From contig NC_135807.1 in assembly GCF_964213995.1 (NCBI RefSeq), positions 66,340,001 to 66,404,000 on the forward strand: DNA of 64,000 nucleotides. Reading direction: 5' to 3'. Positions 1,569-62,585 of the stretch are shown here, piece after piece. Positions within the stretch are counted from its first letter, which is position 1. Each line of letters opens with the position of its first letter. The DNA comes from Mustelus asterias (lineage: Eukaryota). The position numbers and the translations under genes are program-made. The notes below the pieces were generated by a model. The model made no database searches. It was given only the letters and a program-made list of their open reading frames with translations, and was not told where the DNA came from.

Positions 1569-1959
1569 GGGGTATTGTGGTATACTGGGCTACCATGGGC
1601 CTGGACTAATAATCCAGGGAATTAGATCAAATCCCACCATGGTAGTGTGAACATTTTAATGCTGTTTAAAACACCTGGAAATAAAAAGCTGGTATCAGTT
1701 AAAGTGACCATAAAGTTGTTTGAATGTCATAAAAACCCAACTGGGTTGACAAATAAATATTCTTTAAGAAAGGAAATATGCCTTCCTTACCCAGTCTGAC
1801 CTAATTGTGACTCATTCCACACCAACATGGCTGACTCTTAACTGCCTCTTGAACTGACCAAGCAAGGCACTCAGTTGTATTAAACCATCGGCATCTAAGG
1901 ATGGGCAATAAATATGACCATCCCACAGTGTCACCTGCTCAAGAATGAATAAGAAAAGA
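1569..1959 (+). mobile_element. tRNA-headed SINE, family B (3' tail shared with LINE-X)
   Basis: Degenerate A/B-box head (GGACTAATAATCCAG..TCAAATCCCACCATGG), body GAAATATGCCTTCCTTACCCAGTCTGACCTA..GTGACTC and tail GGATGGGCAATAAAT..GAATGAATAAGAAAA. Homologous to 20728-21080 and 51215-51510. Confidence 0.75.
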
Positions 1960-7308: not shown

Positions 7309-8264
7309 AAATTATGTACAGAGAGGGAAAGAAAGATGGGATAATGAGAGAGAGAGAGAGAAAGAGTGAGAGAAAGAATAAAGGCAGAAATAACAAGAAA
7401 AAAATTTAAAACACCTCCAACAACAATTAAAATGTAAAGGAATGAGAACCAAATTTGAAAAAGATCATTTTTAGCGCCAGAAAGGTTGTTTTGCAGTTAT
7501 TTTGCCAATAAAAGTTCCCTTACACTTGAATAGACAAGTCCTAACTCTTTGAGGTGTATTTTGTTGAATAGCTAGTGGGCAAGTATCTCAATTTCACACC
7601 CTTCATGTATTTCATGTACCAAATGCCATAAATGCCATAACTTCTAGAGGAGCAGAGCAACATAGACAGCCGTTTAGACAGTGTGAGTAATTAGTGGATC
7701 CCAAAGGAATGGAGCTGTCAGTGTAAACTGAGATATTTAAATGTATTAATTAAAGGGATCTGGACTTCACTGGCTAGGCCAGCATTCAATGCCCATTTCC
7801 AATTAACCTTGAGATTCTTCCCACATGCCTCCAGATAATTCTGCAAACCAATGCCCTAATAGGTGGCATGGTCCTGGAAAGCAATGGGAAACTTGCTTAG
7901 TGTTGCTTGGTGTTTCCTAAATCTTTTCTCCTGCTGACTTTTTTTTGAACCCTCTGGTAAATGATGTGTGTGATGAGGGTGGAATCTTACCGCCTTCGTC
8001 TTTGGTGCAACATTGGGATCATTTTTGGGTTTAGAACACAAATCCTCAATGTGTGGACATTGTAGTTGCTCTTTGCCACAGCAAACTGATTAGGAACCTG
8101 CCTCAAAGCTTCCCGGCCAATTAGGGAGAATGAGTGGAATGTTGCACTCATTCTGTTAAAGGAAGGAATTCTATTTAAGGGACCCCGGTAAACTGCAGCG
8201 AAACACACCAGCACATGGATTGATAGGCTGCAGCCACCACAGGACTGGAGAGGAGATTTGTGAA

Positions 8265-9692: not shown

Positions 9693-9789
9693 TGTTAAAT
9701 TACTTCTCAAGTGGCTTCTCAACAACTTTCAAACCTGCTGCAGCCAGAAGGATTCCTTTTTCACCTTCAACCTGTCCCAGGGAAAGCCA

Positions 9790-14223: not shown

Positions 14224-14229
14224 TATCAG

Positions 14230-14586
14230 AGTGAAAACTATCCACTGGTTGGAGTCATACTAAAAGATGATGGTTATGGTTGTTAAAGGAAATCATCTCC
14301 ATCCTAGAGCATGTTGCACAAGTTCCTCAGGGTAGTGTCCCAGACTCAACCCATCTTCAGCTGCTTCATCAATAGCCTTCCCTCTATTGTAAAGTCAGAA
14401 GTGGGGATGTTCACTGATGACTGCACAACATTCAGTACCTTTCATGACTCCTCAGATACTGAAGCTGTCTGAGCTAATATGCACTAAGCCCTGGACAACA
14501 TTCTGCCTTGGGTTGATAAGCAATAAGTAATATTCGGCACCACACAATGGCCGGGCAATAACCATCTTCAACAAGAGAAAATCTAA
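14230..14586 (+). mobile_element. LINE-X RT fragment
   Basis: VPQGSV..MFTDDCT region, homologous to 42800-43120. Confidence 0.8.
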
Positions 14587-14589
14587 TGA

Positions 14590-14864
14590 GTGGCATAGTA
14601 GTTAGCACTGCTGCCTCACAGAACCAGGGACCTGGGTCCAATCCCCGACTTGGGTCACTGCCTGTGTGGAGTTTGCATGTTCTCCCCGTGTCTGTGTGGG
14701 TTTCCTCCAGGTGCTCCAATTTCCTCCCACAGTCTGAAAGTTGGTTAGGTGCATTGACCCGAACAGGCACCAGAGTATGGCGACTAGGGGAATTTCGCAG
14801 TAGCTTCATTGCAGTGCTAATGTAAGACTTACTTGTGATTAATAAATTAACTTTAACTTTAAAC
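14590..14864 (+). mobile_element. V-SINE with tail type B
   Basis: tRNA-like head, V-domain, then AACAGGCACCAGAGTATGGCGACTAGGGG..TACTTGTGATTAATAAA(ACTTTA)n. Confidence 0.9.
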
Positions 14865-20727: not shown

Positions 20728-21080
20728 TGTTTTTTTATTAATTCATGGGACGTGGGCGTTGCTGGCTGGCCAGCATTTATTGCCCATCCCTGGTTGCCCT
20801 TGTTTAGAAGGCAGTCTGAGAGTCAACCACATTGCTGTGGCTCTGGAGTCACATGTAGGCCAGACTAGGTAAGGATGGAAGATGTCCTTCTCTAAAGAAC
20901 ATTAGTGAACCAGATGGGTTTTTTCCAACAATCGGCAATGGTTTCATGGTCATCAGTAGATGCTTAATTCTAGATTTTTTTTGTTGAATCTGCCATGGTG
21001 GGATTCGAATCCTGGGTCCCCAGAACATTCGCTGAGATTCTGGATTACTAGTCCAGCTATAATACCACTAAGCCATCACC
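20728..21080 (-). mobile_element. tRNA-headed SINE, family B (near full length)
   Basis: Minus strand has an A box (TGGCTTAGTGG), a B box (GGATTCGAATCC), the body and the tail GGGCAACCAGGGATGGGCAATAAATGCTGGCC..poly(A). Confidence 0.85.
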
Positions 21081-21141
21081 TATTTTTTACCTTCCTGTGT
21101 CTTTCCTCCCTTTCAGAACTTTTGGCTTTTAAACATTTGAA

Positions 21142-22574: not shown

Positions 22575-24164
22575 CTTAAAGAAAGAGATTGTGCTGGAAT
22601 CTTTGAATGGCATCAAGATAGATAAGTCACCGGGTCCAGATAGGATGTACCCCAGGTTACAGTGGGAGGCGAGGGAAGAGATTGCAGAGCCTCTGGTGAT
22701 GATCTTTGTGTCGTCGATGGAGACGGGAGAGGTGCCGGAGGATTGGAGGATTGCGGATGTGGTTCCTATTTTCAAGAAGGGGAATAGGGATAGCCCAGGA
22801 AATTACCGACCGGTGAGTCTAACCTCAGTGGTTGGTAAGCTGATGGAGAAGATCCTGAGGGACAGGATTTATGAGCATTTAGAGAGGTTTAGTATGCTCA
22901 AGAATACTCAGCACGGCTTTGTCAAAGGCAGATTGTGCCTTACAAGCCTGGTGGAGTTCTTCGAAAATGTGACTAAACACATTGATGAAGGGAAAGCGGT
23001 AGATGTGGTTTATATGGATTTTAGCAAGGCTTTCGATAAGGTCCCCCATGCAAGGCTTCTAGAAAAAGTGAGAGGGCATGGGATCCAAGGGGCTGCTGCC
23101 CTGTGGATCCAGAACTGGCTTGCCCAAAGGAGGCAGAGATGGGTCTTTTTCGAAATGGAGGTCGGTCACCAGTGGTGTGCCCCAGGGATCCGTTCTGGGA
23201 CCTTTGCTGAGTGTCATTTTCATAAATGACCTGGATGAGGAAGTGGAGGGACGGGATGGTAGGTTTGCCGACGACACGAAGGTTGGTGGGGTTGTGGATA
23301 GTCTGGAGGGATGTCAGAAGTTACAGAGGGACATAGATAGGATGCAAGACTGGGTGGAGAAGTGGCAGATGGACTTCAACCCAGATAAATGCGTAGTGGT
23401 CCATTTTGACAGGTCAAATGGGATGAAGGAGTACAATATAAAGGGAAAGACTCTTAGTACTGTAGAGGATCAGAAGGACCTTGGGGTCCGGGTCCATAGG
23501 ACTCTAAAATCGACCCCGCAGGTGGAGGAGGTGGTTAAGAAGGCGTATGGTGTGCTGGCCTTTATCAATCAAGGGATTGAGTTTAGGAGTCTGAGGATAA
23601 TGATGCAGCTATATAAGACCCTCGTCAGACCCCACTTGGAGTACTGTGCTCAGTTCTGGTCACCTCATTACAGGAAGGATGTGGAAATGATTGAAGGGGT
23701 GCAGAGGAGATTTACAAGAATGTTGTCTGGATTGAGTGGCATGCCTTATGAGGATAGGCTGAGGGAGCTCGGTCTTTTCTCCTTGGAGAGACGTAGGATG
23801 AGAGGAGGCCTAATAGAGGTATATAAAATGTTGAGAGGCATAGATTGGGTGGACTCTCAGAGGCTTTTTCCCAGGGTGGAAATGGCTGCTATGAGAGGAC
23901 ACAGGTTTAAGGTGCTGGGGGGTAGGTACAGGGGAAATGTTCAGGGGAAGGTTTTCACACAGAGGGTGGTGGGCGAGTGGAATCGGCTGCCGTCAGTGGT
24001 GGTGGAGGCAAACTCAATAGGGTCTTTTAAGAGACTCCTGGATGAGTACATGGGACTTAATAGGATGGAGGGTTATAGGTAGGCCTAAAAGGTAGGGATA
24101 TGTTCGGCACAAATTGTGGGGCCGAAGGGCCTGTTTGTGCTGTAGTTTTTCTATGTTTCTATGT
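22575..24164 (+). mobile_element. Young CR1 LINE, 5'-truncated (RT domain, one frameshift)
   Basis: ORFs 22444-23229 and 23078-24082 ([47 protein letters not shown]), a (TTTCTATG)n tail and TTCCT at both flanks. Confidence 0.97.
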
Positions 24165-24207
24165 TTCCTCTGCCATATATTTGGCTATCTGGGCAGTAGA
24201 AAGTTAT

Positions 24208-29685: not shown

Positions 29686-29907
29686 ACAGTAAGAAGTCTC
29701 ACAACACCAGGTTAAAGTCCAACAGGTTTATTTGGTAGCAAATACCATAAGCTTTTGGAGCGCTGCCCCTTCGTCAGATGGAGAGGAGGGGCAGCGCTCC
29801 GAAAGCTTATGGTATTTGCTACCAAATAAACCTGTTGGACTTTAATCTGGTGTTGTGAGACTTCTTACTGTGCTTACCCCAGTCCAACGCTGGCATCTCC
29901 ACATCAT
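29686..29907. mobile_element. Inverted-repeat PLE pLTR insertion (family 2) with HHR remnants
   Basis: 85-bp arms at 29686-29770 and 29787-29871 with 2 mismatches. 10-bp direct repeat CTTTCAATTA at 29677-29686 and 29917-29926. Confidence 0.92.
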
Positions 29908-29994
29908 GACTATCATCTTTCAATTAGCCAGGTATAGCTTGCTTTTTTAGAAGTCAATGCTATTTGTTTCAAACTGAGCAACTTGACCCACAAG

Positions 29995-30630: not shown

Positions 30631-30929
30631 CCCCCACCTCCTCCTCGGTTGATCATCAGGCTGCTGTACTCTAGTCGTGCGAACAATGGATACCATCAAT
30701 TTTTCGTGATCAGTACAATTCATTATAAAATGTGTGAGGACATTGCCACAACTTTCTGACAAGACAAACTTGTGTCATATTCTATCAAATAATGATAATG
30801 TAGAGCTTCAGAAACTGCAATTGTCTTCATAAAGCTCAATCCAAGTATGCAATTATCCCTGAATATATTACAAAATATTGTATAATACTTACTCTTCAGG
30901 TACAGAGGAAGGAGTGTGTGCCATCTTTA

Positions 30930-31195
30930 TGGTAATACCAAACTAGAGGTCATAAATTCAAATCCAACCACATGGAAAATTATGAAACTTAATCAATAAA
31001 TCTAGCAATTTGTAGGTCGGCATCAGAAACAAAATGGCAATGCAAGTTAAAGTTTGATGTAAATACACAACAGTCACTAGTGTCCTCGAAGAGTAAGAAC
31101 CCGCTAGCCCTAAGTACTCTGGCCTACACACCACATATATCTAGTCTTACACTATATGGTTGACTATTAATTCACTTTGAAGTAGCCTAGCAAAG
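30930..31195 (+). mobile_element. Old family-B SINE
   Basis: Degenerate match to 1569-1959 (CACTAGTGTCC..GGCCTACA..TGGTTGACTATTAA..GCCTAGCAA). A tail-like piece follows at ~31545-31630. Confidence 0.55.
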
Positions 31196-31210
31196 GATGC
31201 ACACATCCTT

Positions 31211-31511
31211 TGGCACGGTGGCACAGTGGTTAGCACTGCTGCCTCACAGCACCAAGGACCCATGTTCAATTCCGGCCTCGGGTGACTGTATGGAGTTTGC
31301 ACATTCTCCCCGTGTCTGCGTGGGTTTCCTCCGGATGCTCCAGTTTCCTCTCACAGTCCAAAGATGTGTGGATTAGGTTGATTGGCCCTTAGTATCAGAG
31401 AGACTTGCGGGTTAATGCATGGGTTTGTGGGGATGGTGTCTGGGTGGGATTGTTGTCGGTGCAGGCTTGATGGGCTGAGTGGCCTCCTTCTGCACTGTGG
31501 AGATTCTATGA
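31211..31511 (+). mobile_element. HE1 V-SINE
   Basis: GGCACGGTGGCACAGTGGTTAGCACTGCTGCC head, V-domain and CR1-type tail. Confidence 0.92.
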
Positions 31512-33191
31512 TTGAAAAAGTTCCGACCTTAAATAGCGGGCCCACCACCATCTCCTCGGGGCAACTAGGGTTGGGGAATGAATGGGGATCTTGCCAATGT
31601 CATTCAAAGCCCAAGACCAAATAAAAAAAACATGTTTCCACAGTTCTGGTGCCAAGCCTCAGGAATGTCTTCTTCAAGGTGATGACAGATTTCTGTGTTT
31701 AGTGTGGTGAAAGTACATATATGGGGCAGTTTACAGCATAAGAATCAACTTGATTTTCCAGGAAATGAAGGCAAATGCTGCGTACCAGACTGACTTGACA
31801 CGACTACCCAATCTATGTCTTATCTGAGGGGATTTGATAACGAGATGAGAAGTTACAATGATGCGTGCTGCGGAAAGTAATTCTGATTTTGGGCCAAAGG
31901 AAAGGCAACTGCACCTTGTACCTCATTTAGGAGTGCTTACTGTTGGCTCTTAGAGCCAAATTACAAACATTCTGTTTCACAGCATTGACGTTTCTTACGT
32001 TATGGAAAGTTAACAAAAATATAAATTTCATAACAATTGAAGAAAGGTTAATGAGGTCATCACTTAGCTACATGTAAATAGGTTCTATTGAATCAAGTGG
32101 AAATGATTATACATCATCTGGCCTCTGCTTTAAAGTACCATCTATAGTGAGTCCTAGAGTAAATAGCATCGTGGCAAAACAATTGCTTTTGCAACCAAGA
32201 TAAATTTGGAAATACTTGATTGAGACCCATGAAGGTATAAGGAATGATTTATGATGAGGGCGGAGCTTTATAATCTAAATGATCCAATACCTGAGAAGAA
32301 TAAACCAGTAAGAAATCTAAAATCTGATCACGTGGCTGTGGTTGAACACGTATTAGAAATGAACAAATTAGAATGCAAGGTCAAGCTGAGCCTTAGCTGG
32401 TCCAAAAGGCTGAATTGGCTCGACTAAGCTCATTTTGAGCCAAGATCATAAAACACAATATTCCACAAAGAAACAAAAAAAAATTATTTCACTCAATGTT
32501 AAGTGGGACAAAGTTGCTTTTCTATGAAATAATTCAGGTTTTTGCTTTTCTTATTTTTCATGTTATATGCTTTTGAAACTATTGGGATATTTTTATTTCT
32601 TTCTGATACATATTTTCCCTCATTTTCACTTATTAACTAGTGTCAACGATTCTTCTTTTATCATTGCCTATTTCACGTCAAATATATTATTTATGTATTC
32701 TTGCTTTCACATTTTTAAAGCAGATGGGGACAATTAGGTGGAGCTGTTGATCATCTCAATCTGGACCTATTTATACAACCACTTATAGAAATAAGTAGAC
32801 GGATATTCATCAAGAAAAAAAATCTCTCAATGAATGCATTGATTCTGGCTAACATCAAATAGGCGCTTCTGTTTCTGTGATCCAGGATAATAGAAGTTGA
32901 GGCCTCATGACAGTGTCATGTAGTACGACAAAGCCAATTTTCTTATTATCTAAATTACTATTGTATGTCATTGGTGGGCATCCTTTTGGATTACCTGCCT
33001 TGGGTGGTGGTAAAAGAATTTATTGCACTACACTGCCTCAACGCAAGTTGTGCTGCAGTCCCAAGCCAATGCTGTTGGTTTTCCATTTGGCCAATTTCCT
33101 GAAAGCAACTGACTGTGTCGCCAGTGAGCACATGATGGGAAATGTGTCGGCGACTTAAAATCAGGATTCCTGATGGTGAACAGAAGAAACG

Positions 33192-35745
33192 TATGTAGAA
33201 AATAAAAGCAGGAATAGGCCATTTAGCCCTTTGAGCCTGCTTCACCATTCATTATGATCATGGTTGATCATCAAATTAAATATCCTGATTCCACCATCCC
33301 CCACATTCCTTGATCCCTTTAGCCCCAAGAGCTATATCTAATGCCTTCTTGAAATCACACAACATTTTGGCCTCAACCACTTTCTGTGATAGTGAATTCT
33401 GGTGAACTGGTGCAACGATAATAATCTCTCCCTCAATGTCGACAAAATGAAGGAGATTGTCATCGATTTCAGGAAGCGTAGAGGAGAACATGCCCCGGTC
33501 TACATCAATGGGGACGAAGTAGAAATGGGCGAAAGCTTCAAGCTCACCAAAACCTGTCCTGGTCTCCCCATGCTGACACTATAGTTAAGTAAGTCCACCA
33601 ATGCATCTACTTTCTCAGAAGATTAAGGAAATTTAGCATGTCAGCTATGACTCTCACCAACCTTTACAGATGCACCATAGAAAGCATTCTTTCTGAATGT
33701 ATTGCAGCTTGGTATGACTCCTGCTCTGCCCAAGACCGCAAGAAACTACAAAAGGTCGTGAATGTAACCCAATCCATCAATCAAACCAGCCTCCCATCCA
33801 TTGACTCTGTCTACACTTCCCGCTGCCTCGGCAAAGCAGCCAGCATAATTAAGAACCCCACACCACCCCGGACATTCTCTCTTCCACCTTCTTCCATCGG
33901 AAAAAGATACAAAAGTCTGAGGTCATGCACCAACCGACTCAAGAACAGCTTCTTCCCTGCTGCCATCAGACTTTTGAATGGACCTACCTTGCATTAAGTT
34001 GATCTTTCTCTGCACCCTAGCTATGACTAACACTACATTCTGCAATCTCTCATTTCCTTCTCTATGAACGGTATGTTTTGTCTGTATAACGCGCAAGAAA
34101 CAATACTTTTCACCGTATGTTAATACATGTGACAATAATAAATCAAATCAAATCAAGTCAAATGCATAGATTCATCACTCTCTTGGTGAAGAAATTTCTC
34201 CTTACCTCAATCCTAAAAGGTTTACCCCTTATCTTCAAATTATGACCCCTAGTTCTGGACTCCCCCACCTTCATGAACATTAGTTCTGAACCTACCTTGT
34301 CTAATCCTGTTAGAATGTTATAACTTTCTATAAGATCCCCTTTCACTCTTCTAAACTCCAATGAATATAATCCCAACTGATTTACTCTTTCCTCATATGA
34401 CAGACCTGCCATCCCAGGAATCAGCCTGGTAAAACTTCACTGCACTCTCTCTATAGCAAGGACATTCTTCCTCAGATAAGGAAAACAATGCTCCAGGTGT
34501 GGTCTCACCAATGCCCTATACAATTGCAGCAAAAATTTCCTATTCCTATACTCAAATCCTCTCGCGATAAAGGCCAACATACCATTTGCCTTCTTTACTG
34601 CCTTCTGTACCTGCACGCTTACTTTCAGCAACTGATGCATGTGGACACCAAGGTCTTGCAATTCAAGTAATAATCTGCCTTCCTATTTTTGCTACTGAAT
34701 TGGATAACCTCATATTTATCCACATTATACTGCATCTGCCATGCATATGCTCACTCACTCAGTCTGTCCAAATCACGCTGAAGCATCCCTGAATCCTCCT
34801 CACAGCTCACCTTTCTATCTAACTTTGTATCATCTGCAAATTTAGAGATAATACATTTAGTTCCCTCTTCCAAACCATTAATATATAATGTGAACAGTTG
34901 GGGTCCTAGCATAGATCCCTGTGGAGCCCCACTAGTCACTGCCTGCCAATTGGAAAAAGACCCATTTATTCCAACTCTTTGTTTCCTATCTGCTAACCAG
35001 CTTTCTATCCATCTCAAGACACTATCCATAATCCCATGGTTTTAGCTTTACATAATGATCTGCTATGCAAGACTTTGCTGAAAGCCCTTTGAATGTCTAG
35101 ATAACCCATATCCACCATTTCTCCCTGGTCAACTCTACCAGTTACATCCTCAAAGAATTCCAGTAGATTTGTCAAGCATGATTTCCCTTTCATAAATCCA
35201 TGCTGACTTAGTCCGATTATACCACTGCTCTCCATGTGCTGTGCTATGAAATCCTTGATAATGAACTCTAGCAACTCCCCGACTACCGATGTTAAGCTCA
35301 CTGGTCTATAGTTCCTTGTTTTCTCTCTACCTCCCTTTCTGAAAAGCGAGTTTACATTAGTCACCCTCCAATCTGTATGAACCATTCCAGAATCCAAAGC
35401 ATTTTGAAAAATAACCACCAATGGATCTACTATCTCTAGGGCCACTTTCTTAAGTACTCTGAGATGTAGATTATCAGACCCCGGGGAATTACCCACCTTC
35501 AGTCTCATTAATTTCCCCAAAACCATTTCTCTACTAATCCTGATTTCCTTCACCTCTTCACAAAAAAACTTGGGTTTCTCTAAATTTGCTGTACATTATT
35601 CATGTTTTCCTTTGTGAAGACAGAAGCAAAGTATGAATTTAGTTCCTCAGCCATTTCTTTGTTCGCCATTATGAATTCCCCCATTTCTAACTGTAAGGGG
35701 CCTCCATTTGTTTTTGTCAATCTTTTTCTCTTTACGGACCTATAT
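33192..35745 (-). mobile_element. CR1 LINE (older subfamily) split by a Rex1/Babar insertion
   Basis: Minus-strand ORFs 35014-35553, 34751-35029, 34437-34661 and 34158-34412 carry RT motifs. The 3' end resumes at 33399-33192. Confidence 0.93.
33400..34158 (+). mobile_element. Rex1/Babar LINE 3' part
   Basis: WCNDNNLSLNVDKMKEIVIDFRK, YRCTIESIL..AIRLLN and an (AAATC)n tail. Confidence 0.93.
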
Positions 35746-36636: not shown

Positions 36637-38494
36637 AGGAGTCATGAGAAGGCCTTGGCAAGTAGAATTAAGGAAAACCCTAAGGCGTTCTATAAATATG
36701 TGAAGAGTAAAAGGATGAGACGTGAAGGAATAGGGCCTATAAAAGATGAAGGCAGGAAAATCAGTACGGAACCAGTAGAAATGGCAGAGGTGCTTAATGA
36801 GTATTTTGCCTCGGTTTTCACAGAGGAGAAGGACATGGGTGGATGTACTGTGGGCTTGCGGTGGACTGAAAAGATTGAGTATGTGGACTTTAAGAAAGAG
36901 GTTGTGCTGGAATCTTTGAATGGCATCAAGATAGATAAGTCGCTGGGTCCGGATGGGATGTACCCCAGGTTACTGTGGGAGACGAGGGAAGAGATTGCGG
37001 AGCCTCTGGTGATGATATTTGTGTCGTCTATGGAGACGGGAGAGGTGCCGGAGGATTGGAGGATTGCGGATGTGGTTCCTATTTTCAAGAAGGGGAATAG
37101 GGATAGCCCAGGAAATTACCGACCGGTGAGTCTAACCTCAGTGGTTGGTAAGCTGATGGAGAAGATCCTGAGGGACAAGATTTATGAGCATTTAGAGAGG
37201 TTTAGTATGCTCAAGAATACTCAGCATGGCTTTGTCAAAGGCAGATCGTGCCTTACGAGCCTGGTGGAGTTCTTCGAAAATGTGACTAAACACATTGACG
37301 AAGGGAAAGCGGTAGATGTGGTTTATATGGATTTTAGCAAGGCGTTCGATAAGGTCCCCGATGCAAGGCTTCTAGAAAAAGTGAGAGGGCATGGGATCCA
37401 AGGGGCTGCTGCCCTGTGGATCCAGAACTGGCTTGCCCAAAGGAGGCAGAGAGTGGGTATAGATGGGTCTTTTTCTAATTGGAGGTCGGTCACCAGTGGT
37501 GTGCCCCAGGGATCTGTTCTGGGACCCTTGCTGTTTGTCATTTTCATAAATGTCCTGGATGAGGAAGTGGAGGGATGGGTTGGTAAGTTTGCCGACGACA
37601 CGAAGGTTGGTGGGGTTGTGGATAGTCTGGAGGGATGTCAGAAGTTACAGAGGGACATAGATAGGATGCAAGACTGGGCGGAGAAGTGACAGATGGACTT
37701 CAACCCAGATAAATGCGTAGTGGGCCATTGTGGCAGGTCGAATGGGATGAAGGAGTACAATATAAAAGGAAAGACTCTTAGTACGGTAGAGGATCAGAAG
37801 GACCTTGGGATCCGGGTCCATAGGACTCTAAAATTGGCCCCGCAGGTGGAGGAGGTGGTTAAGAAGGCGTATGGTGTGCTGGCCTTTATCAATCGAGGGA
37901 TTGAGTTTAGGAGTCCGGGGATAATGATGCAGGTATATAAGACCCTCGTCAGACCCCACTTGGAGTACTGTGCTCAGTTCTGATCGCCTCATTACAGGAA
38001 GGATGTGGAAAAGATTGAAAGGGTGCAGAGACGTTTTACAAGGATGTTGCCTGGATTGAGTGGCATGCCTTATGAGGATAGGCTGAGGGAGCTCGGTCTT
38101 TTCTCCTTGGAGAGACGTAGGATGAGAGGAGACCTAATAGAGGTATATAAAATGTTGAGAGGCATAGATCGGGTGGACTCTCAGAGGCTTTTTCCCAGGG
38201 TGGAAATGGCTGCTACGAGAGGACACAGGTTTAAGGTGCTGGGGGGTAGGTACAGGGGAAATGTTAGGGGGAAGTTTTTTCACACAGAGGGTGGTGGGCG
38301 AGTGGAATCGGCTGCCGTCAGTGGTGGTGGAGGCAAACTCGATAGGGTCTTTTAAGAGACTCCTGGATGAGTACATGGGACTTAATAGGATGGAGGGTTA
38401 TAGGTAGGCCTAAAAGGTAGGGATATGTTTGGCACAACTTGTGGGGCCGAAGGGCCTGTTTTGTGCTGTAGTTTTCTATGTTTCTATGTTTCTA
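36637..38494 (+). mobile_element. Young CR1 LINE, 5'-truncated ORF2
   Basis: The 366-aa ORF 36589-37689 continues past two TGG>TGA stops (37687, 37981). Nearly identical to 22575-24164, with a (TTTCTATG)n tail. Confidence 0.97.
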
Positions 38495-39310
38495 CTTTAT
38501 CCCCGTTGATGCAGACAGGAGCATGTTCTCCTTTACACTTCCTGAAGTCGATGACAATCTCCTTCATTTTGTTGACATTGAGGGAGAGATTATTGTCGCC
38601 GCACCAGTTCACCAGTTTCTCTATCTCATTCCTGTACTCTGTCTTGTCATTGTTTGAGATCCGACCCACTATGGTGGTGTCGTCAGCAAACGTGAAAATC
38701 GAATTGGAGGTGAATTTGGCCGCACAGTCACAGGTGTACAAGGAGTATAGTCGGGGGCTGAGAACACAGCCTTGTGGGGCACCGATGTTGAGGATGATCG
38801 TGGAGGAGGTGTTGTTGCCTAACCTTACTGATTGTGGTCTGTGAGTTTGGAAGTTCAGGATCTAGCCGCAGAGGGAGGTTCTGAGGCCCAGGCCACAGAT
38901 TTTGGAGATGAGTTTTGTGGGAATAATAGTGTTGAAGGCTGAGCTGTAGTCAATAAATAGGAGTCTGACATAGGTGTCCTTGTTATCTAGGTGGTCCAGG
39001 GTTGAGTGCAGGGCCAGGGAGATGGCGTCTGCTGTGGACCTGTTGTGTCAGTAGGCAAACTGTAGTGGATCCAGGTAGTCCGGGAGGCTGGAATTGATTC
39101 GTGCCATGACTAGCCTTTCGAAGCACTTCATAATGATGGATGTCAGAGCCACCGGCCGATAGTCATTAAGCACGCTGCTTGGTTTTTCTTAGGTACCAGG
39201 ATGATAGTCGTCTTCTTGAAGCAGATAGGGACCTCAGATTGTTGTGAAGAGGAGCTGAAGATGTCTGTGAATACCCCTGCCAGCTGATCCGCGCAGCATC
39301 TGAATGCTCG
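38495..39310 (-). mobile_element. Rex1/Babar LINE RT fragment (continues at 36585-36636)
   Basis: FADDTTIVGRISNNDKTEYRNEIEKLVNWC and CADQLAGVFTDIF..VPICFKKTTII motifs. The sequence resumes on the far side of the CR1. Confidence 0.92.
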
Positions 39311-41402: not shown

Positions 41403-41909
41403 CAGATTATGGATTGTGTGGTGTTCTTCAATGTTTCTATAAGCAGCACTACATGAACACATTTCTTCCCCATTTGAGTCTAAACCAGGAGGTATAAGCC
41501 AGATTTGAATGTTGCACAGAAAGCAAAATAAAGAGAGGGAAAGAAAAATCATTATAATACAGATAAAAGAAATACACAGAAAAGTGTTTTTAAATAAAAT
41601 AATAATTTTAATTTCAAACAAAATCGCTGCCATCTATTAAGAAATCAGTCTCCGCATTTGAAAATTCAAATTTGCAACGCCAGAGATGTTGTTTGGCAGT
41701 AATTATGACTTATCACACTATTAAAAATTCACGAGCACCTGAATGCATCAGTCCTAACATTTTTAGCATGTTTAGTGAATGCGTATGTACATCAATTTAA
41801 TGTCATCATGTGGATTTCAATGCTGAGTCTATTGGTGAGATTGCGTGATACCACAGCCTGTGGAGGAGCTGCTGTTAAGCTATGCACCCCCCACATTTCA
41901 AAACAAATA

Positions 41910-43793
41910 AAGCTGGATGGACCACTTGGCATCGACCGGGCACCAAAAACAGCACAGCAAACCCAGTCCTGTTGGCCTGTCCTGTTCCACTAGCGGGACA
42001 CACCCATCAGTTTGGCAGCAGTATACAGTGGTTTACAATTTAGAGGGAGTTATTCTGGGAGTCCTTAGTCTGGACCCCATGAAATCTCATTGCATCAGGT
42101 CAAATATGGGCATGGAAACCTCCTGTGACTCTCACACATCCCCAAATCCCTTCAGCTGATGAATCAGTACTTGTCCATGTTGAACACAATTGGGGGAAGC
42201 ACTGAGGGTGGCAAGGACGCAGAATGTACTCTGGATGGAGGACTTCAATGTCCATCGCCAAGGGTGGCTCAGTAGAACCACCACAGACTGAGGTGGTTGA
42301 GCTCTAGAGGACATATCAGACAGGCTGGGACAGCAGCAGCGGTGAGGGAACCAACAAGAGGGAAAAACATACTTGACCTCATCCTCACCAACCTGTCTGC
42401 CACAGATGCATCTGTCCATGACAATATTAGTAGAGGCGACCACCAGACAGTCTTTGTATCGGCAAAGTTCCTTCCTCACATTGAGGATACCCATAATCGT
42501 ATTGTGTGACACTATCACCTTGCCAAATGAGATAGACCTCAAATAGATCTAAGAACTCAAGAATGGGCAACCATGAGGCGCGGTGGGCCATCAGTAGCAT
42601 CAGAATTGTACTCAGCCACAATCAGGAACCTCATGGTCTGGCATATCCCATTGGTTCAAACATGGATAAGAGAGCTGTCACCTGAGAGGTGAGGTGAGAG
42701 TGGCTGCCCTTGATATCAAGGCTGCACTTGATTTAGTGTGGCTTAAAGAAACCCTAGCAAAACTGGAGTCAATGAGAATCCGGGGGGGGTGAAATTCTCC
42801 GCTGGTTGGAGTCATAACTAGCACAAAGCAAGATGGTTTTGGTTTATGGAGATCAGACATCTCAGCTCCAGGACATCACTGCAGGTGTTCCTCAGATTAG
42901 TGTCCTAGGCCCAAACATCCTGAACTGTTTCATTGATGACCTTCCTTGCATCATAAGGTCAGAGGTGGGGATGTTCAGCACCATTTGTGACTCCTCAATT
43001 ACTAAAGCAGTTCATGTCCAAATGCAACAAGACCTGAACAATATCCAGGCTTGGGCTGACAATTTACATTTGCGCTTCACAAGTGGCAGGCATTGACCAT
43101 CTCCAACAACAGTGAATCTAACCATCACCCTTTGACATTCAGTGCCATTGCCATTACTGAATCCCCCACTATCAACATCCTTGCGGTTACCATTGACCAG
43201 AAACTCAACTGGACTCGTCATATGAATACTGTAGCTATGAGAGCTAGGGCTGTGGTGAGTAAGTGACCCTTTGAACCCCCACCCGCAAATTCTGTCCACA
43301 AAGCACAAGGCACAAATCAGGAGTGTGATGGAATAGTCTCCATTTGCCTGAATGGGTGCAGCGCTAACAGCACTCAAGACGTTTGACACCATCCAGGGCA
43401 AAGCAGCCTGCTTAATTGGCATCCTTTCTACAAACATTCACTCCCTCCACCACTGATGCACAATGGCAGCCCATGTGCACTGTCTCCAAAAAGAATTCAC
43501 CACTACCATATAAAAGGATAAGGGGAGGAGATATCTGGGAACACCATAACTTGGAGGTTCCCCCTCCAAGCCACTCGCCGACCTGACTTGGAAATATATC
43601 GCTTTTCTTTCACTGTCGCTGGGTCAAAATCCTGGAACTCCCTCCATAACAGCACTGTGGATGTACCTGCACCATGTGGGCTGCAGTGATTCAAGAAGGC
43701 AGCTCACCACTACCATTTCAAGGGCAATTAGGGATGAGTATTGAATGTTGGTCTAACCAGTGAAGTCCACAACCCTTGAATGAATAAAAAAAA
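41910..43793 (+). mobile_element. LINE-X (APE + RT non-LTR element, CR1-like), internally deleted
   Basis: EPTRGKNILDLILTN (APE), GVPQISVLGP..FIDDLP (RT) and tail GGGCAATTAGGGATG..GAATGAATAAAAAAAA. Confidence 0.85.
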
Positions 43794-45897: not shown

Positions 45898-46492
45898 TGC
45901 TCAGTTGGTAGTATTCCTCCCTCCAAGTTATAAGATTCAGGGGTCAAGTCCTGTTCCAGGACTGGAGCACAACAATCACAGCTGACATTCCTGTTGAAGG
46001 TGCTGTCTTTCAGCTGAGACATATGCCAGAATTCTACCGCCCCGCCTGCCACGGAATCAGAGAGGGCGAGGGGCAGACAATGGAAATGTCCGTTGACCTC
46101 GGGCAGGATTTTCCAGTCTCCGGTCGAGCAAGGCTGTAAAATTCCACCCATAGACTGGAATCTTCCTGTCCCACTTGTCACAGGAATTGTAGCGGGGGCG
46201 AACTATCCCATCTGCTCCCTCAGGTGGATGTAAAAGGCACTATTTCAAAATAGGGCAGAGGAGTTATCCCTAGTCCCCTGGCCAAAATTCATCCCACAAT
46301 TGACATCACAAGAAACAGACTATCCGCTCATTATCGTGTTCCTATTTGTGGGAGCTTGTTTGCGCAAATTGGCAGTTGTGTTTTCGACATTACAACACTG
46401 TCTACCCTTCCAAAATACTTAAACGGCAGATAAAATGCTTTGAGACGGCCAGCTGGTCATGAAAAGTGCTCCATAAAGGCAGGTCTTACTTT
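45898..46492 (+). mobile_element. Deu-domain SINE (SacSINE1-like) interrupted by MITEs at 46024-46200
   Basis: tRNA-like head GCTCAGTTGGTAG..TCAAGTCC, Deu-like core CAGGTGGATGTAAAA..GGCACTATTTC..CCTGGCCAA and an L2-like tail. MITE TSD ATA at 46021-46023 and 46150-46152. Confidence 0.85.
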
Positions 46493-48680: not shown

Positions 48681-48849
48681 CATATTGGTTATTGCAACGT
48701 GCCATAAATGTCTGTTTGATAAGTGACTGCCACCTGTGGTTGCAGTGACAGCAACTGTAAATTCGTTTCAAACTATACTGCACAAATTGAATTTTTTTTT
48801 AACCTAGCATTATGGTCCATTTTTCTTCAGCCCCAATCTGAATGTTGTC

Positions 48850-51510
48850 CTATTATTGCTGCATATGGATATAGACTGCTTCAGTAACTGAGGAGTTGTG
48901 AACGGTGCTGAATGACAATGTTAGAAATGCAAGTCCCTTTAAGAGTAAACCAGGAGAAGCATTGGAATGAATGGAGTGCAGGCGATGCTCGTTGAAGTCT
49001 GCACTCAAGAGATGGATTTTTCCCCAGAAAATGTTTGCTTCTCTCCAGAAGGGAAGAGTGGAATCTGGTATCAAAAACCAGTCGTGAATCACAGAATATC
49101 TTCTGCTAGCTGTTTTGGTAAATGAATATCCACTTGTGAAACATTGAACATTCTGCGATCATCAGCAAATATCCCCACTTCTGTCCTTAAGGTGAAAGGA
49201 AGGTCATTGAGAAGCAGCTGAAGATGGTTGGGTCTAAGACACTACCCTGAGGAACTCCTGCAATGATGCCCTGGAGCTGAGATGATTAATCTCCAACCAT
49301 CACAACCATCTTCCTTTGTACTAGGTGTGACTCTAACCAGCGGAGAGTTCTTCCCCTGATTTCCATTTACTCCAGTTTTGCTAGGGCTCCTTGATGCCAC
49401 ATTCAGTCAAAGGCAGCTTTGATATCAATGGCAGTCACTGTCACCTTATCCCTTGAGTTCAGCGCTTTTGTCCAAGTTTGGATCAAGGCTGTAGTGAGGT
49501 CAGGAGCTGAAATGTTCTGGCAGGATACAAACTGAGCATTAGTAAATAGGTTATTTCTGAGTAAGTGCAGCTTGATAGAACTGTTGGTGACCCCTTCTAT
49601 CATTTTTCTGATGGTTGAGAGTGGACTGATGGTCTAAGTGGCCAGGTTGGATTAGCCCTGTTTTCTTGTACAGGACATATCTGGACATGTTTCCACATTG
49701 CCACTGTTCTAGCTGTACTGGAACAGCTTGGCTAGGGGTGATGCAAGTTCTGGAGCACAAGTCTTCAGTACTATTGCTGGAATATTGTTAGGGCCCATAG
49801 CCTTTGTAGTATCCAGTGTCTTCAGCCATTTCTTGATATCACATGGACTGAATCGAATTGGCTGAAGACACACATCTGTAATGCTGGGGACTTCAGGAGA
49901 TGACTCAAATAGATCATCCACTCACATTTCCGGCTGAAGATCGTTGCAAATGTTTCATAATTGTCCTTTGCACTGATGTGCTATCTTCACCCATCATTGA
50001 GGATAGATATATTTATCGAACCTCCTCCTGCAGTTAGTTGATTAATTGTCCACTGCCATTCATTACTGGATGTGGCAGAACTTAGATATGGTCCATTTGT
50101 TGTAGGATCACTTAGCTCTATTGATCACATGCTCGTTCCACTTGCATGTAAGTAATCCTGTGTTGCAGCTTCACCAGGCTGACACTTCAGATTAGGTATG
50201 CCAGGTGTTGCTCCTGGCATGCCCTGCTGAACTCTTTGTGGAACCGGGGTTGATCCCCTGGCTTGGTAGTGATGGTAGAGTCAGGATATGCCCGACAATG
50301 AGGTTACAGATTGTGGTTGAGTATAATTCTGCTGCTGCTGATGGCCCACAGCACCTCCTAGTTTTGAGTTGCTTGATCTGTTTGAGGTCTATCTCATTTA
50401 GCATGGTAGTGCCACACAACGCGATGTGAAGATGTGACTTTGTCACAACAAAGGACTGTGCGATGGTCACTCCTACCAATACTGTCATGGCATCTGCAAC
50501 AGGTAGATTGGTGAGGACAAGGTCAAGTAGGTTTTTCCCTCTTGCCTGTTTTCTCAGCACCAGTTACAGACCCAGTCTGGCAGCTATGTCCCTTAATGAC
50601 TGACAGAGCAGGCTCAAAGGGCCGAATGGCCTACTTCTGCTTTTAGTTTCTATGTTTCTATGATTCAGCCAGCCCAGTATATAGTGGTGCTATAGAATCA
50701 CTCTTGATGATGGACATTGAAGTCCCCCAACCAGAGTACATTCTGTGCTCTTGCCACCCTCACTGCTTCCTCCAAGTAGTGTTCCACATGGAGGAGTACT
50801 GATTCATCAGCTGAGGGGAGAAGGGGTTGGTGGTTGGGGCAGTGGTGGGTGGTAACCAACCTTGACCACGTTTGACCTGATTCCATGGGGCCCAGAGTCA
50901 ATATGGAGGACTCCCAGAGTAACTCCATCTCGACTATATACCACTGTGCCATCACTTCGTGTAGATGGGACAGGACACATTCAGGATGGTGCTGCTGATG
51001 TCTGGGACTTTGTAAGGTATTATACAATGAGTAGGACTGTGTCTGGTTATTGTTTGACTACTCTGTGAACAGCTCTCCTAATTGTGGAGCAAGCCTGTAA
51101 GGAATTCTTTGAAGGACAAAGAGCTGGGTGTCTCATTATCATTTCTGGTGTCTGGGTCAATGCTCGGTGATCCACCTGGTTTAATTCCTTTGTGTCAGTT
51201 TCGTAGCAGTTTTAATACAATGAGTGACTCGGTAGGCCATTTCAGAGGGGAATAATAGTCAACCAAATTGCTGTGGATCTAGAGTCACATGTAGGCCAGA
51301 CTCGGTAAGGATGGCAGATTTCCTACCCTAAAGCGCATTAGGGAAGGAGATTGGTTTTTATGACAGAGGTTTCATAGCCTGTATTACCAAGACTAGCTTT
51401 TAATTCTTGACTTATTAATTGAATTTAAATGTGGTGGGATTTGAATCAGTGTCCACAGAGCCTGGCCCTCTGGATTATTAGTCCGGTGACATTATCACTA
51501 TATGTCCGCC
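48850..51510 (-). mobile_element. LINE-X with 5' tRNA-SINE-like leader (51215-51510)
   Basis: ORF remnants VLWLGDFNVHH, RGKNLLDLVLTN, KAMGPNNIPAIVLKTCAPELA and AIDIKAAFD. The 5' end is colinear with the family-B SINE head and body. Confidence 0.85.
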
Positions 51511-52047
51511 TTTCCATAATTATGAGGTATGTATTTTTAATTTGACACTGGTGTAATGATTTGTTTAGGTTAGATTGTACAGGACCACTGGCATTTTACT
51601 GATGGTGGGATGACATCCCCATTTTCCAGGGAGTCTGCCAGCTTCATGGAGGAGGCCTCCCTGCTGCAGCCTGAGGCATGCCATCAGAGTCACAGGCTCC
51701 TTGGTTCAGGAAAGGAGCTGTGGGCAGCAAAGGCAGCCCTGTGGCACCAACAACTTCCTGGAATCGATTTCCCCTCTGACCTTCGGCACCTGATCTTCTT
51801 TACATTTTGTTTTCTTATCTGCTGATACCCTGATCAGCTACCTGCCTCTGCAGTGCCCACCTCTCTGGGTGGCACTGCTGAGCCTTCACAGCTGCCAGGT
51901 TTCTGATTGGACCAGCAGCATCAGGAACATGCTCACTGTCCTTAACTGGATGGTGGCCTGGCAGGCTGACAACTGGGAGGCTGACTGCAGCAAAATGGCT
52001 GAACCAGTCGCACTGCCAGCAAGTGGGGGCTTGGAATCTGATTTTCA

Positions 52048-52345: not shown

Positions 52346-53515
52346 TCCCCATGTCAGAGTCCTGAAGCCTCTTGGTAAAATTCAGCCCATAGAATACTCC
52401 ATTAACTTTTAGCTTTTAACTTTGGAAGGGGAATTCAAAAGCAGTAATATAAACCTCCCTCTATGCTGATCATCACAAACTTACTTTAGAAGACTAAAGA
52501 AAACATTGTTTAAATTCACTGAACAAGCACTTTACCTACATGATGAAAGATCAATGATACAGTTCAACCTGTTGTTTTAGTGTTGAGGGGCTGGTGACTG
52601 ATGTCATGTAATGTAAACACAACAGGGCAATGAGGGGAAATAAACCACTGTGAGTAAACCAGTACTCCTCCCAGAACCAGGAGAGCCACCGAGGGCAGGT
52701 CCGAGCTCAGGGCGGGTTTCCTGGTGCCGATGTCAGCGAGGTATCAGTGCACTGCAGCAAGGTCACTTTGAGGACACAATGTGGAGAGTCTCTGAGTCAT
52801 TTTCAAGTCAGTGAAGAAAGACAATAGAATGGAAATACGAGGTCTTAAATGTTCATTTAGTCGTGTCTGCCTCTCTGCTAAATAAACTGAAGCTGAACAC
52901 TTTGTGATGGCAAACCACACTCACTCAACCTAACCACTCGACTTTCTGAATCTAGTCAGAAAGTCAGCTCCCAATTTCAAACTTGGCAAATGAAAAGAAC
53001 TTTAAATCAAGGTATTACCATTGTTAAAAAAAAAGTTTGTTTTAAGCACGGAATGATTCTGAAATCTCAGGGTTAGAGAGGGACTAGATTTATTGATACT
53101 TTATTCATGCGTTCTATTTTTAGCACAATGATACATTTGTATGTGATACATTGACATAGCTGTCCAAATGCATTAGAATGAGCATTTTTCTCTTTGGGAA
53201 TGCTGTAATTACGAAGCACAGCAATTGCAATGGGGAAATATAGGAAGGATTTAGAAGATAGAAGAGAAATGGGAAAAATATATTTGGAGAGCATCTTGTT
53301 ACATCTCGAAGCATTTTACATACAATGACCTGGATTGTGGTCAGAATAATAGTGGAACTATCAGCACTCATTTTCCTAATGTAATGAATCTCACAGCAGC
53401 TTCCCCTGTTCGCACACAGGCAGTTAAACCTAGAAATCAGGAAGTAGCTGTATGATTTACTTTGTTCCTCTCTCTGTAAGCTTCACTTTTGGTACTGCGC
53501 TTAGAAACAAATGCA

Positions 53516-53836
53516 CATAGAATCATAGAAGCCTTACAGTCCAGAAGGAGGCCATTTGGCTCATCAAGTCTGCACCGACTCTCCAACAGAGTATCCCACC
53601 CAGGTCCTAACCGCCTAGCCCCACATATTTACCCCACTAATCCCCCTAACCTACATGTCTTGGTATGCACCTAACATGCACCTGTTTGTACTGTGGAAGG
53701 AAACCGGAGCAACTGGAGGAAACCCACGCAGACACGGGGAGAACATGCACACTCCACACAGACAGTCACCCAAGGCCGGAATCGAAAACTGTGTTCCTGG
53801 CGCTGTGAGGCAGCAGTGCTAACCACTGTGCCACCA
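53516..53836 (-). mobile_element. HE1 V-SINE
   Basis: Head, V-domain and (TTCTATGA)-type tail on the minus strand. Confidence 0.9.
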
Positions 53837-54835: not shown

Positions 54836-55752
54836 GTGGGAAGGAAGGATGTGGTGCCTGGAGTTTGGAGCCTACCCCATCTTTCTACTCTTCCTATTCC
54901 TCTATTCTGCAGTTGGAGCTGCACTGCCTGGTTACATCTCCTCCTCCTATTTACACCCCAGACCAAGGGGAACCCTTGGCAAATTTGCTTTGACTGTGCA
55001 CTTCTTTTGTCCTGGTGACTCTTATTAGATCTTTAGAAAGCACAGAACATACATTTTTAGGTAAAGTCTTCAGAGAATTTCTGAAATAAAAATTGATAGA
55101 GTGTAAGTGAAGTCTCCTGATGTGTTTCAGGAGACCTCTTCACATGCAATCTATTTTCAGCAGCAAATTAACACTGATAAGCTGAGTAAGGCTTTAAGTA
55201 GCATTAGAAATACTCAGCAACAATTTCTTTAGTCCTGTTCAGCTGGTCTTTATTAGGAGAAGTTGTTTGCTTAAATGGCATGCAACATAATGAACATGAA
55301 CAGGCAATTTAACGGTCAACGTCTACCTCACAGCTTTCTGCCTCTCTATCTCACTTTCTGCTTCCAGGAAACTCCTTAAAAGCTACCAGTTTGACTAAAC
55401 CTTTGGTCATCTGACCTGGCTTGGTGTCATACTTTGTTTTATAATACTCCTGTGAAGAACCTTAGGTGTTCCATTATATTAAAAACACTATGGGTGGGAT
55501 TTTCTGGTTGTGCCCGCCCAGAGATCGAAAATTCCCACCTGAAGTCAACAGACCTTTAAGCGATCCGCCAAATTTTCCATCCCACCCACTACAATTTTGC
55601 AGAGAAATACTGGGACAGAACTTTGTTATGATCATTTTTAAGCCAATTAATTTGTGATGTGTTTGGTATATATACCAGAACCAAAGGACTTGGATTCACC
55701 CCAAATTAAACCTCTGGTATTATCCCCACAATTGCACAAATTAATGATGAGC

Positions 55753-55790
55753 TGTTGGACTTTAACCTGGTGTTGTTAAACTTCTTACTG
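55753..55790 (+). mobile_element. Tiny PLE family-2 fragment
   Basis: CTGTTGGACTTTAACCTGGTGTTGTTAAACTTCTTACTGT matches 61259-61297. Confidence 0.8.
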
Positions 55791-56279
55791 TCTAGACTCA
55801 GCAGCCAGGGGAAACATTCTCTCCACATCTACCTTGTACGAATGTTGTAAATTTCAATGATATCACCTTTTATTCTTTGAAATTCTAGAGGATAGGCCCA
55901 GTCTCTTAATCTTTCCTCATAGGATGATCATACCAGCCCTGGGATTAGTCTTGTCAACCTCCATTGCACTTAATCTCTGGCAAGTATATCCTTCCTTAAA
56001 TAAGGAGACTAAAACTGCATGCAATACTTCAGGTGCAGTTTCACATGGAGATGCACATCGAGCATCTTGTGTCCTCACAGCAGCACTCATCCAAGCAAGT
56101 GGAAAGTATTCTATCACACTCTTAAGCTCCATTGAGCTGTCAATGGAATCTTTCTCAAAGCACTACACCTTGTTTGAGATCAAAGGGTTCCATTAGAATG
56201 GAGAAGTTATCAAAGAATTCAGGAAGCCTCAGAAACTTCAAACCAAAGCTGTGTGCATACATTTGGGATGAGTGTACAG

Positions 56280-58399: not shown

Positions 58400-58607
58400 C
58401 ACACCTTGTCGGGGAAGAGTTTTCAGGAAAGTGTCTGATTTCAAGGAGAAATTAGATATAGCTCTTGGGACTAAAGGGATCAAGGGATATGGGAGGAAGG
58501 GGGATCAGGATATTGAATTAGATTATCAGCCATGATGAAAATGAATGGCAGAGAAGGCTTGAAGGGCCGAATGGCCTACTCCTGCTTCTAATTTCTATGT
58601 TTCTATG
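58400..58607 (+). mobile_element. CR1 LINE 3' end
   Basis: Tail GAAGGGCCGAATGGCCTACTCCTGC..(TTTCTATG)n. Confidence 0.85.
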
Positions 58608-61072: not shown

Positions 61073-61297
61073 CACGCAAAACTCACGTTGTTTTGTTTCT
61101 TAAAGACTTGATTAGTTGTAAGTATTCGCATTCCAACCATTATTCATGTAAATTGAGTTTGTGTCTTTATATGCTCTGTTTGTGAACAGAATTCCCACTC
61201 ACCTGAAGAAGGGGCTTGGAGCTCCGAAAGCTTGTGTGGCTTTTGCTACCAAATAAACCTGTTGGACTTTAACCTGGTGTTGTTAAACTTCTGACTG
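61073..61297 (+). mobile_element. PLE family-2 pLTR segment
   Basis: 13-bp TSD TGAATCCCAATCT at 61060-61072 and 61298-61310. Contains a TATA-like TTTATAT and an HHR. Confidence 0.88.
61200..61236 (+). ncRNA. Minimal hammerhead ribozyme with intact core
   Basis: CAC-CTGAAGA-A-GGGGC-TTGGA-GCTCC-GAAA-GC-TT-GTG, with a palindromic AGCT loop III. Predicted cleavage at 61233/61234. Confidence 0.82.
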
Positions 61298-61335
61298 TGA
61301 ATCCCAATCTGCCAGTCCCTCATTCCAGTCTCTCT

Positions 61336-61460
61336 GGCAGGAATTTTACCGCCTTGTCCGCCCCAGAATCGCAGCGGGTGAGGCTTGCAGAACAGCATTC
61401 TCCGTTGGCCTTGGGCGGGATCTTACGAGCCTTGGGCAGGTGAGGTGGTAAAACTCTGGT
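61336..61460. mobile_element. ~130-bp MITE
   Basis: GGCAGGAATTTTACC / GGTAAAACTC ends; homologous to 46024-46149. Confidence 0.75.
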
Positions 61461-61570
61461 ATCTGTTTCTTCAGAGCCCCATTCTTTGACCTCTTTCATC
61501 AATCTCCCTCACTCAATCATTCCTTCAACTACATTCCTGTCACTCCCTCCCCTGGTCTCCAGTTCACTGT

Positions 61571-61628
61571 AAGAGTTTTAACAACGCCAGGTTAAAGTCC
61601 AACAGGTTTATTTGGTAGCAAATACCAT
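61571..61628 (-). mobile_element. 58-bp PLE family-2 fragment
   Basis: 13-bp TSD TCCAGTTCACTGT at 61558-61570 and 61629-61641. Matches the pLTR sequence immediately downstream of the HHR. Confidence 0.88.
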
Positions 61629-62167: not shown

Positions 62168-62585
62168 TAAGAAAGAATTCCATTTATACAGCACGAAACA
62201 TGATCACTGGGTGTCTCAAAGTTCTTTATAGCCAATGAAGTTCTTTTGAAGTGTCTTCACTGTTGTAATGTAGGAAATAGCACACCAATGTGTGTACAGC
62301 AAGATCCCACAAACAACGATGTAATAATGTCCAGATAATCTGCCTTTTTGTGAGGTTGATTGACGGATAAATATCCCATGCTCTTCTTCAAAAGAATGCT
62401 GTAGGATCTTTAACGTCGACCCAAGGAAGGTTGATGGGGTTTCAGTTTTACATCGCATACACAAAATGGCACCCCTGACAGTACGGCACTCCCTCAGTTA
62501 GCATTTTTTCTGTATTTAAGACCAGGAATTGGACTTGAACCCTGAACCTTGTGAGTCAGAGGCAAGAATACGACCAACTGAGCCA
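62168..62585 (-). mobile_element. Deu-domain SINE
   Basis: Reverse complement is homologous to 45898-46492, with head GGCTCAGTTGGTCG..GGTTCAAGTCC. Confidence 0.85.

Follow-up and report, generated by a model that had tools for sequence, protein, structure and literature searches.

A tRNA-like head on a decayed elasmobranch Zenon LINE and on short elements carrying its two ends in Mustelus asterias

LINEs and SINEs are divided by the polymerase that transcribes them, polymerase II for the coding LINEs and polymerase III for the non-coding SINEs. In a stretch of 64,000 nucleotides of the Mustelus asterias genome (hereafter the window), which is repeat-rich vertebrate DNA throughout, a LINE on the minus strand opens with a SINE-like head and body, raising the question of whether this head belongs to the LINE or came to lie beside it by accident. 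An abundant LINE with a SINE promoter would, if true, break the polymerase divide and represent a natural multi-kilobase polymerase III messenger, raising the question of cap-free translation. Also at stake are a one-step route of SINE birth and a traceable origin of the SINE body, an origin treated as an open question in the available text of PMC5786205, with the present LINE clade outside its list. We describe here an old and broken copy of a LINE known as elasmobranch Zenon, which belongs to the CR1 group and measures ∼3.3 kb, and we regard as fairly probable the overall account of a headed Zenon LINE transcribed by polymerase III, from which SINEs arose by internal deletion.

Structure of the LINE copies and the short elements

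The LINE copy at 51 kb (51k element), the second copy at 42 kb (42k copy) and two further Zenon pieces in the window are organized as follows.

51511-48827, minus strand: decayed LINE copy with, in this order, a tRNA-Ser-like head, a 220-nt body, an A-rich linker, endonuclease and reverse transcriptase (RT)
51425..51511, minus strand: tRNA-Ser(AGA)-like head, its counterpart opening seven published consensuses from base 1
51205..51424, minus strand: body common to the short elements, closing with the junction motif (from pairwise alignments and profile)
51100..51204, minus strand: A-rich linker and leader, not in the short elements, matching 41873-42030 and coming after the body in the published consensuses
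50250..51099, minus strand: decayed region of the single ORF covering apurinic-type endonuclease and linker, interrupted by stops and frameshifts
50597..50664, plus strand: 3' tail fragment of a foreign repeat, a later insertion within the endonuclease region (gap relative to the 42k copy)
49150..50249, minus strand: decayed RT region
48827..48913, minus strand: final surviving piece of the 51k copy, beyond a ∼235-nt unrelated insert; 3' end lost
41900..43793, plus strand: second Zenon copy, beginning at the linker/leader, with complete 3' end and A8 tail (43786-43793)
14225..14589, plus strand: Zenon RT fragment
7741..7817, minus strand: Zenon-type 3' tail fragment

The 51k head consists of a decayed A box, an anticodon-arm-like stem-loop, a long segment resembling a variable arm and a B box (51447-51437, 2 mismatches). 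The endonuclease region matched Pfam Exo_endo_phos_2 with an E-value of 0.0092, short of the cut-off, and was matched by shark protein fragments (P0015-P0020) in tblastn, while the RT region was recognized by Pfam RVT_1 (E 6.6e-11 over 49208-49633). The foreign insert at 50597..50664 matches 33196-33254, 58540-58607 and 21520-21581 of the window. No recognizable ORF1 had been reported in the preliminary description, and this agrees with the finer map: the first endonuclease-like residues occur ∼120 nt past the end of the body, so that no space is left for an ORF1 in the 51k element, and 51100-51510 contains no stop-to-stop ORF of 120 aa.

The 42k copy starts within about 30 nt of the junction and is headless, its upstream sequence scoring 125 against the head compared with a shuffle mean of 141; such a start would also be expected from a headless LINE form. 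It carries an ∼800-nt internal deletion at 42650/42651 which fuses the post-endonuclease linker to the middle of the RT, and longer internal-deletion forms thus exist too.

Protein searches with the LINE pieces gave as nearest named matches gene-model fragments of Rhincodon typus and Heterodontus francisci. A complete Zenon protein of a shark was not among the results: one search gave 14 distant RT proteins, with identities of 37% at most, another gave none, and in a set of 11 the close ones that were named were again shark gene-model fragments. Translated Zenon endonuclease fragments occur within several shark gene models (P0017, P0020, P0022), namely one for a zinc-finger protein of Heterodontus and models of whale shark; they are probably annotation artefacts or exonized repeats.

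Three free short copies, named here by their position, share the two ends of this LINE.

20730..21075, minus strand (20.8k copy): best-preserved short element, with short-type head, early breakpoint and Zenon 3' tail
1569..1955, plus strand (1.57k copy): short element with long-type head, breakpoint immediately past the junction motif and Zenon 3' tail
30900..31630, plus strand (31k copy): third, older short copy, with head and body to ∼31195, then a foreign SINE, then a somewhat longer Zenon tail

The claim that the LINE opens with ∼300 bp colinear with a SINE was borne out by all three, which align with its head and body. LINE positions 51500-51231 (minus strand) were 69.8% identical to 21070-20792 over 281 columns (E 4.5e-35), 67.1% identical to 1651-1884 (E 3.6e-22) and 61% identical to the third copy at 30956-31189 (E 7.7e-9), which is an addition to the preliminary description. 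A profile built from the three free copies alone retrieved the LINE at 51498-51142 with an E-value of 1.2e-40. The 1.57k copy, which had been said to keep the junction motif, indeed contains it and aligns across the LINE junction in 65 of 89 columns (score 207; maximum 116 in 200 shuffles). Beyond the body the LINE runs, as previously proposed, into a leader and not into the SINE tail, the segment 51217-51061 matching 41873-42030 with a score of 134 (mean 70 and maximum 128 in 200 shuffles).

At the other end, the tails of the free copies match the 3' end that the second LINE copy has at 43703-43793, as had been claimed for them. The respective alignments extend over 74 of 111 columns for the 20.8k copy (score 212, shuffle maximum 106) and 62 of 102 columns for the 1.57k copy (score 120, shuffle maximum 85). 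The tail of the 31k copy, which is split by another tRNA-headed SINE (31212-31513), scored 215 against a maximum of 130, with the first ∼20 nt of this alignment belonging to the inserted SINE. In both the 20.8k and the 1.57k copy, the LINE 5' part directly abuts the LINE 3' part without any private middle, and their breakpoints lie ∼40 nt apart. Both LINE-derived ends were thus recognized, but never together on one LINE copy in the window, as the 51k copy ends at 48827 without its 3' end. No target-site duplications were seen by eye at any of the copies, all of which are old.

Recurrence of the junction and identity of the family

A combination of head, body and leader at a single locus could reflect a SINE that landed beside a 5'-truncated LINE. 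In order to assess recurrence, assembled contigs of four runs were placed on the window at 80% likeness, which yielded 15,010-22,015 records per run, nearly all of them on the body. The body is very highly repeated in the contigs of four organisms; in one run (X1) the summed depth reached 4.2 million at 51275-51299 versus 26 in the flank, figures that do not represent copy number. The junction itself (51196-51198) was covered by nothing beyond the locus or its orthologue, except for a single additional contig in X1, one of the four runs. This near-absence of further loci spanning the junction, like the headless 42k copy, speaks for a chimera, although placement at 80% likeness is insensitive here, the copy being decayed across the junction. 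Contigs of organisms A, B and C bridge the junction of the 51k locus with 1, 15 and 34 differences, respectively, and the junction is thus not an assembly error. Pattern scans for further copies returned none in viral contigs (0 and 0), in GTDB or in the related-locus scan, and all 12 matches of the metagenome pattern scan were chance matches in GC-rich DNA without likeness to the window.

The question whether the LINE was already catalogued was settled by PMC13343379, where it is known as elasmobranch Zenon, its families being absent from Repbase/Dfam according to the available text. Zenon is described there as lacking ORF1 and having a poly-A tail, so the suspicion that full-length copies might possess a conventional, ORF1-bearing 5' end did not hold. 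The first 400 letters of each consensus in the supplement of that paper were searched for motifs of the window, and the remainder of the comparison was made by eye, without full alignment. Seven elasmobranch consensuses of five species (CarCar_, RhiTyp_, ScyCan_ and HypSab_Zenon-1, and SquAca_Zenon-1 to -3), representing white shark, whale shark, catshark, spiny dogfish (three consensuses) and stingray, open with head, body, junction and leader, which disposes of the possibility that the junction is unique to this locus. Within the 400 letters, the head motif TAATCCAGA and the body motif, the latter in two spellings, were found in all seven, the junction motif of the 1.57k copy in six, and the leader motif of the 42k copy in five; none of these motifs was present in the first 400 letters of the rows, three in all, for hagfish and coelacanth Zenon. 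Again within the first 400 letters, three exact B-box words were confined to elasmobranch Zenon rows, six of the seven, in a table of more than 900 rows.

The published consensuses were built with automatic extension (PMC13343379), which might itself have joined a SINE to a LINE and counts towards an artefact. Against this, and against a chance landing, the identical junction occurs in seven consensuses of five species which, in the portion compared, are mostly in upper case from base 1; it is found independently in the 51k genomic copy and its orthologues; and the SINE tail is absent from the 51k copy exactly as in the consensuses. An origin of the junction by chimera or artefact is therefore very improbable and has largely been refuted. 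The tRNA-like head, together with the body, would almost certainly constitute the family-wide 5' end of elasmobranch Zenon.

Judged by its 5' identity, absent ORF1 and poly-A tail, the LINE is elasmobranch Zenon. The LINE copies of the window together share with the consensuses, which are ∼3.2-3.3 kb long, the 5' sequence, junction, leader and poly-A tail, and in the parts compared no difference in the element was seen. In Table S3 of PMC13343379 the numbers of copies examined, which we read as long copies, are 2,313, 1,419, 612, 396, 294 and 59 in six families, with 0-3 intact ORFs per Zenon family. What is new here is the tRNA-like head, the missing ORF1 being normal for Zenon. The word 'tRNA' has no occurrence in the main text and supplement of PMC13343379, which in the available text is silent on a polymerase III promoter and on derived short elements, and no description of a tRNA-headed shark Zenon was found in the literature searched (Repbase, Dfam, SINEBase and subscription journals lay outside its scope). 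Zenon masks 0.7-6.8% of five elasmobranch genomes (Table S4 of PMC13343379), a figure that probably includes short copies; annotations that score short copies as LINE would understate the SINE content of sharks.

Nature of the head and the polymerase question

The heads were not called as tRNA by ARAGORN or Rfam, and a control SINE head in the window gave only 14.2 bits (E 2.3). Counted against consensus words, the boxes of the 20.8k copy are best kept, with a perfect A box (21075-21065) and a B box with a single mismatch (21011-21001), versus 2-3 mismatches in the 51k and 1.57k copies. A pattern of stem-loop plus B box matched four loci on viral contigs, and all four proved to be tRNA-Ser(AGA) genes, which align with the heads from the D-loop to the T-loop, the long variable arm included. 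Using a profile of these four genes, the 20.8k head ranked first in the 64 kb with an E-value of 0.014, in a search that is partly circular, and the remaining heads were not significant (E 3.2 and 9.1). The heads folded no better than shuffled sequences (z 0.27 and −0.35). Among the tails, that of the 20.8k copy folded rather better than shuffled sequences (z −2.3, 4 of 200) and that of the 42k copy not clearly so (z −1.25). Taken at the sequence level, the head is likely of tRNA origin, and its assignment to tRNA-Ser is tentative. Of the tRNA-Ser(AGA) genes on the large-virus contigs (L013-L016), which are of eukaryote type, two lie within tRNA clusters.

Polymerase III terminates at runs of at least four T. 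In 3,106 non-overlapping Zenon nucleotides only a single sense-strand run of this kind was found where 7.8 were expected, and none of 500 shuffles was as low; runs of at least five T were absent. When only the coding part was considered, there was one run in 2,701 nt versus 6.4 expected (6 of 500 shuffles as low). Runs of A, C and G were not depleted. Seven other LINE remnants of the window, one near-duplicate having been left out, served as control set; their T content is similar, and they contained 35 runs over 6,827 nt (binomial p 2.4e-5 versus Zenon). With dinucleotide-preserving shuffles, all Zenon pieces together had 2 runs versus 7.1 (p 0.013), and one of these two is missing at the homologous place in the other Zenon copy. 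All of these counts come from old, decayed copies, and codon or amino-acid bias lies outside the shuffle model. A LINE remnant of another family (38490-39265, minus strand) is also poor in T-runs, with 1 in 776 nt, and is too short to interpret.

Such a depletion, the one observation that bears on the polymerase and an indirect one, would fit the need of polymerase III to read through the element. It is possible, and in our estimation the lesser chance, that Zenon is instead an ordinary polymerase II LINE, with the captured module acting as its 5' UTR or its polymerase II promoter, or with host promoters providing its transcripts; the A and B boxes would then matter in the short elements alone. 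LINEs are taken as polymerase II transcripts in the available text of PMC5786205, and recombination with the abundant short copies could refresh the boxes of the LINE. The requirements of translation are, moreover, more readily met with a capped transcript. This reading, however, leaves the depletion of T-runs in the coding region, with normal runs of A, C and G, unexplained, and the 5' ends of hagfish and coelacanth Zenon, inspected by eye in the published supplement, contain many T-runs. Full-length transcription of elasmobranch Zenon by polymerase III, as read from the sequence, appears evenly poised to marginally favoured, and the odds seem even that Zenon would be an autonomous coding element with a 3.3 kb polymerase III transcript, purged T-terminators and cap-free translation, in which a deletion yields an instant SINE.

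A start of the ORF at an ATG within the body was considered and dropped, because the linkers of six consensuses (29, 29, 29, 28, 25 and 21 nt, measured by eye in the published sequences, with homopolymer errors possible) differ in length by amounts not divisible by three. A conserved ATG past the linker, also seen by eye, appears not to share the frame of the endonuclease motif in the single consensus that shows both within the portion compared.

Origin of the short elements and related systems

In the favoured account, an ancestral Zenon ORF would have gained a SINE-like 5' module before the shark/ray split, probably by template switch; the compared 5' portions of the hagfish and coelacanth Zenon rows are without the motifs. 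The A-rich linker may be a remnant of the donor's tail. In a second step, to which we give a little better than an even chance, the internal A and B boxes would travel with every copy and direct polymerase III along the full element, so that sense-strand T-runs would be purged from the coding region. Internal deletions would then fuse ∼270-310 nt of the 5' end to the terminal 70-90 nt, and the resulting short elements, retaining both the promoter and the RT-binding tail, would amplify as SINEs. In this order of events the capture of the head must have preceded the origin of the short elements.

The preliminary description had inferred that the SINE consists of the LINE 5' part plus its 3' tail, and this is supported by the two intact copies without a private middle. 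The differing breakpoints of these copies, together with the missing private middle, favour repeated internal deletion, and it is fairly probable, as far as the alignments go, that the short elements would have been made in this way more than once. The longer head segment occurs in the 51k and 1.57k heads and, by motif search of the published 5' portions, in two dogfish consensuses, and the shorter form is found in the 20.8k copy and, by eye in the same portions, in the consensuses of whale shark, white shark and catshark; the presence of both variants in the LINE and in the short elements fits repeated deletion or recurrent exchange.

It is unlikely that the SINE came first, a classical tRNA SINE with a Zenon tail having arisen once, the LINE later taking over head and body, and the present short copies descending from such an original SINE and not from deletions. 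The head ultimately has to derive from a tRNA or a SINE, repetition of the body far exceeds that of the leader, and the A-rich linker past the body resembles, by eye in the sequences compared, the relic of a SINE tail; a capture of a SINE by a LINE has also been proposed for Ingi-3_AC (PMC5786205, available text). On the other hand, the shared 5' sequence reaches the tail in both intact short copies at breakpoints that differ, and both the long and the short head variants occur in the LINE consensuses, within the portions compared, as well as in the short copies, and these points count against a SINE that came first.

A comparable process is known from lepidopteran Zenon, which repeatedly gave rise to internal-deletion elements, the Persaeus elements (PMC6740152, available text). 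Like these SIDEs, the short elements described here join the 5' end of a Zenon LINE to its 3' end and would have several origins and variable breakpoints. Persaeus, as described in that text, has neither tRNA homology nor a polymerase III promoter, whereas the shark parent LINE, unlike that of Persaeus, is already headed, so that its deletion product would be a SINE at birth. The 20.8k and 1.57k copies, which consist of nothing but the LINE 5' and 3' ends, are SIDE-like in origin and, owing to their small-RNA-type head, not classed as SIDEs.

The combination of a tRNA head with LINE 5' and 3' parts is shared with Bov-tA, AfroSINE, CoeSINE4 and SINE2-1_EBu. According to the available texts (PMC5786205, PMC7245038), in these bipartite-LINE SINEs the head was added after the deletion and the LINE is headless, and their bodies come only from RTE and Vingi elements; here the LINE belongs to the CR1 group and shares the head too. 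RTE-1_DAn and related elements, members of the RTE clade, form a LINE family with a tRNA-like sequence matching many SINEs (PMC5786205, available text), which shows that there is a precedent in Repbase for a tRNA-like sequence in a LINE; that text is silent on where in the LINE the sequence lies, on a promoter role and on SINEs derived from it. In the tRNA/LINE-1 chimeras (PMC13174262) a tRNA is joined to the 5' side of the LINE, as here, but these are, as far as described in the text available, 21 single human loci with mostly antisense tRNA halves and no propagating family.

HE1, SacSINE1 and the CmiSINEs are, like the present short copies, tRNA-headed shark SINEs with LINE-derived tails (PMC5499810, PMC4824008, PMC3747384). 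The known chondrichthyan SINEs, in contrast, have bodies of the V, Deu or CORE type and, as partners, HER1, CR1-4_DR-like or L2 elements, and none is described with a Zenon partner in the parts of these papers available, the comparison having been made from their descriptions.

Further repeats were observed in the window. Two CR1-like LINE copies (22575-24167 and 36888-38492) are 95% identical over 1.6 kb, have long open RT frames and are much younger than the Zenon copies. A second tRNA-headed SINE, which we presume to be HE1-like, occurs in many copies (21142-21835, 31212-31513, 53515-53835, 7035-7308 and 14590-14865); a head-to-tail and inverted cluster of it adjoins the 20.8k short element and one copy lies within the 31k copy. 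A pair of SINE-like repeats (46200-46490 and 62169-62372), presumably Deu/SacSINE1-like, is 68.6% identical over 207 columns. Self-inverted short repeats were found at 9461-9881, 29686-29914, 61200-61628 and 55752-55791 and are probably miniature DNA-transposon derivatives.
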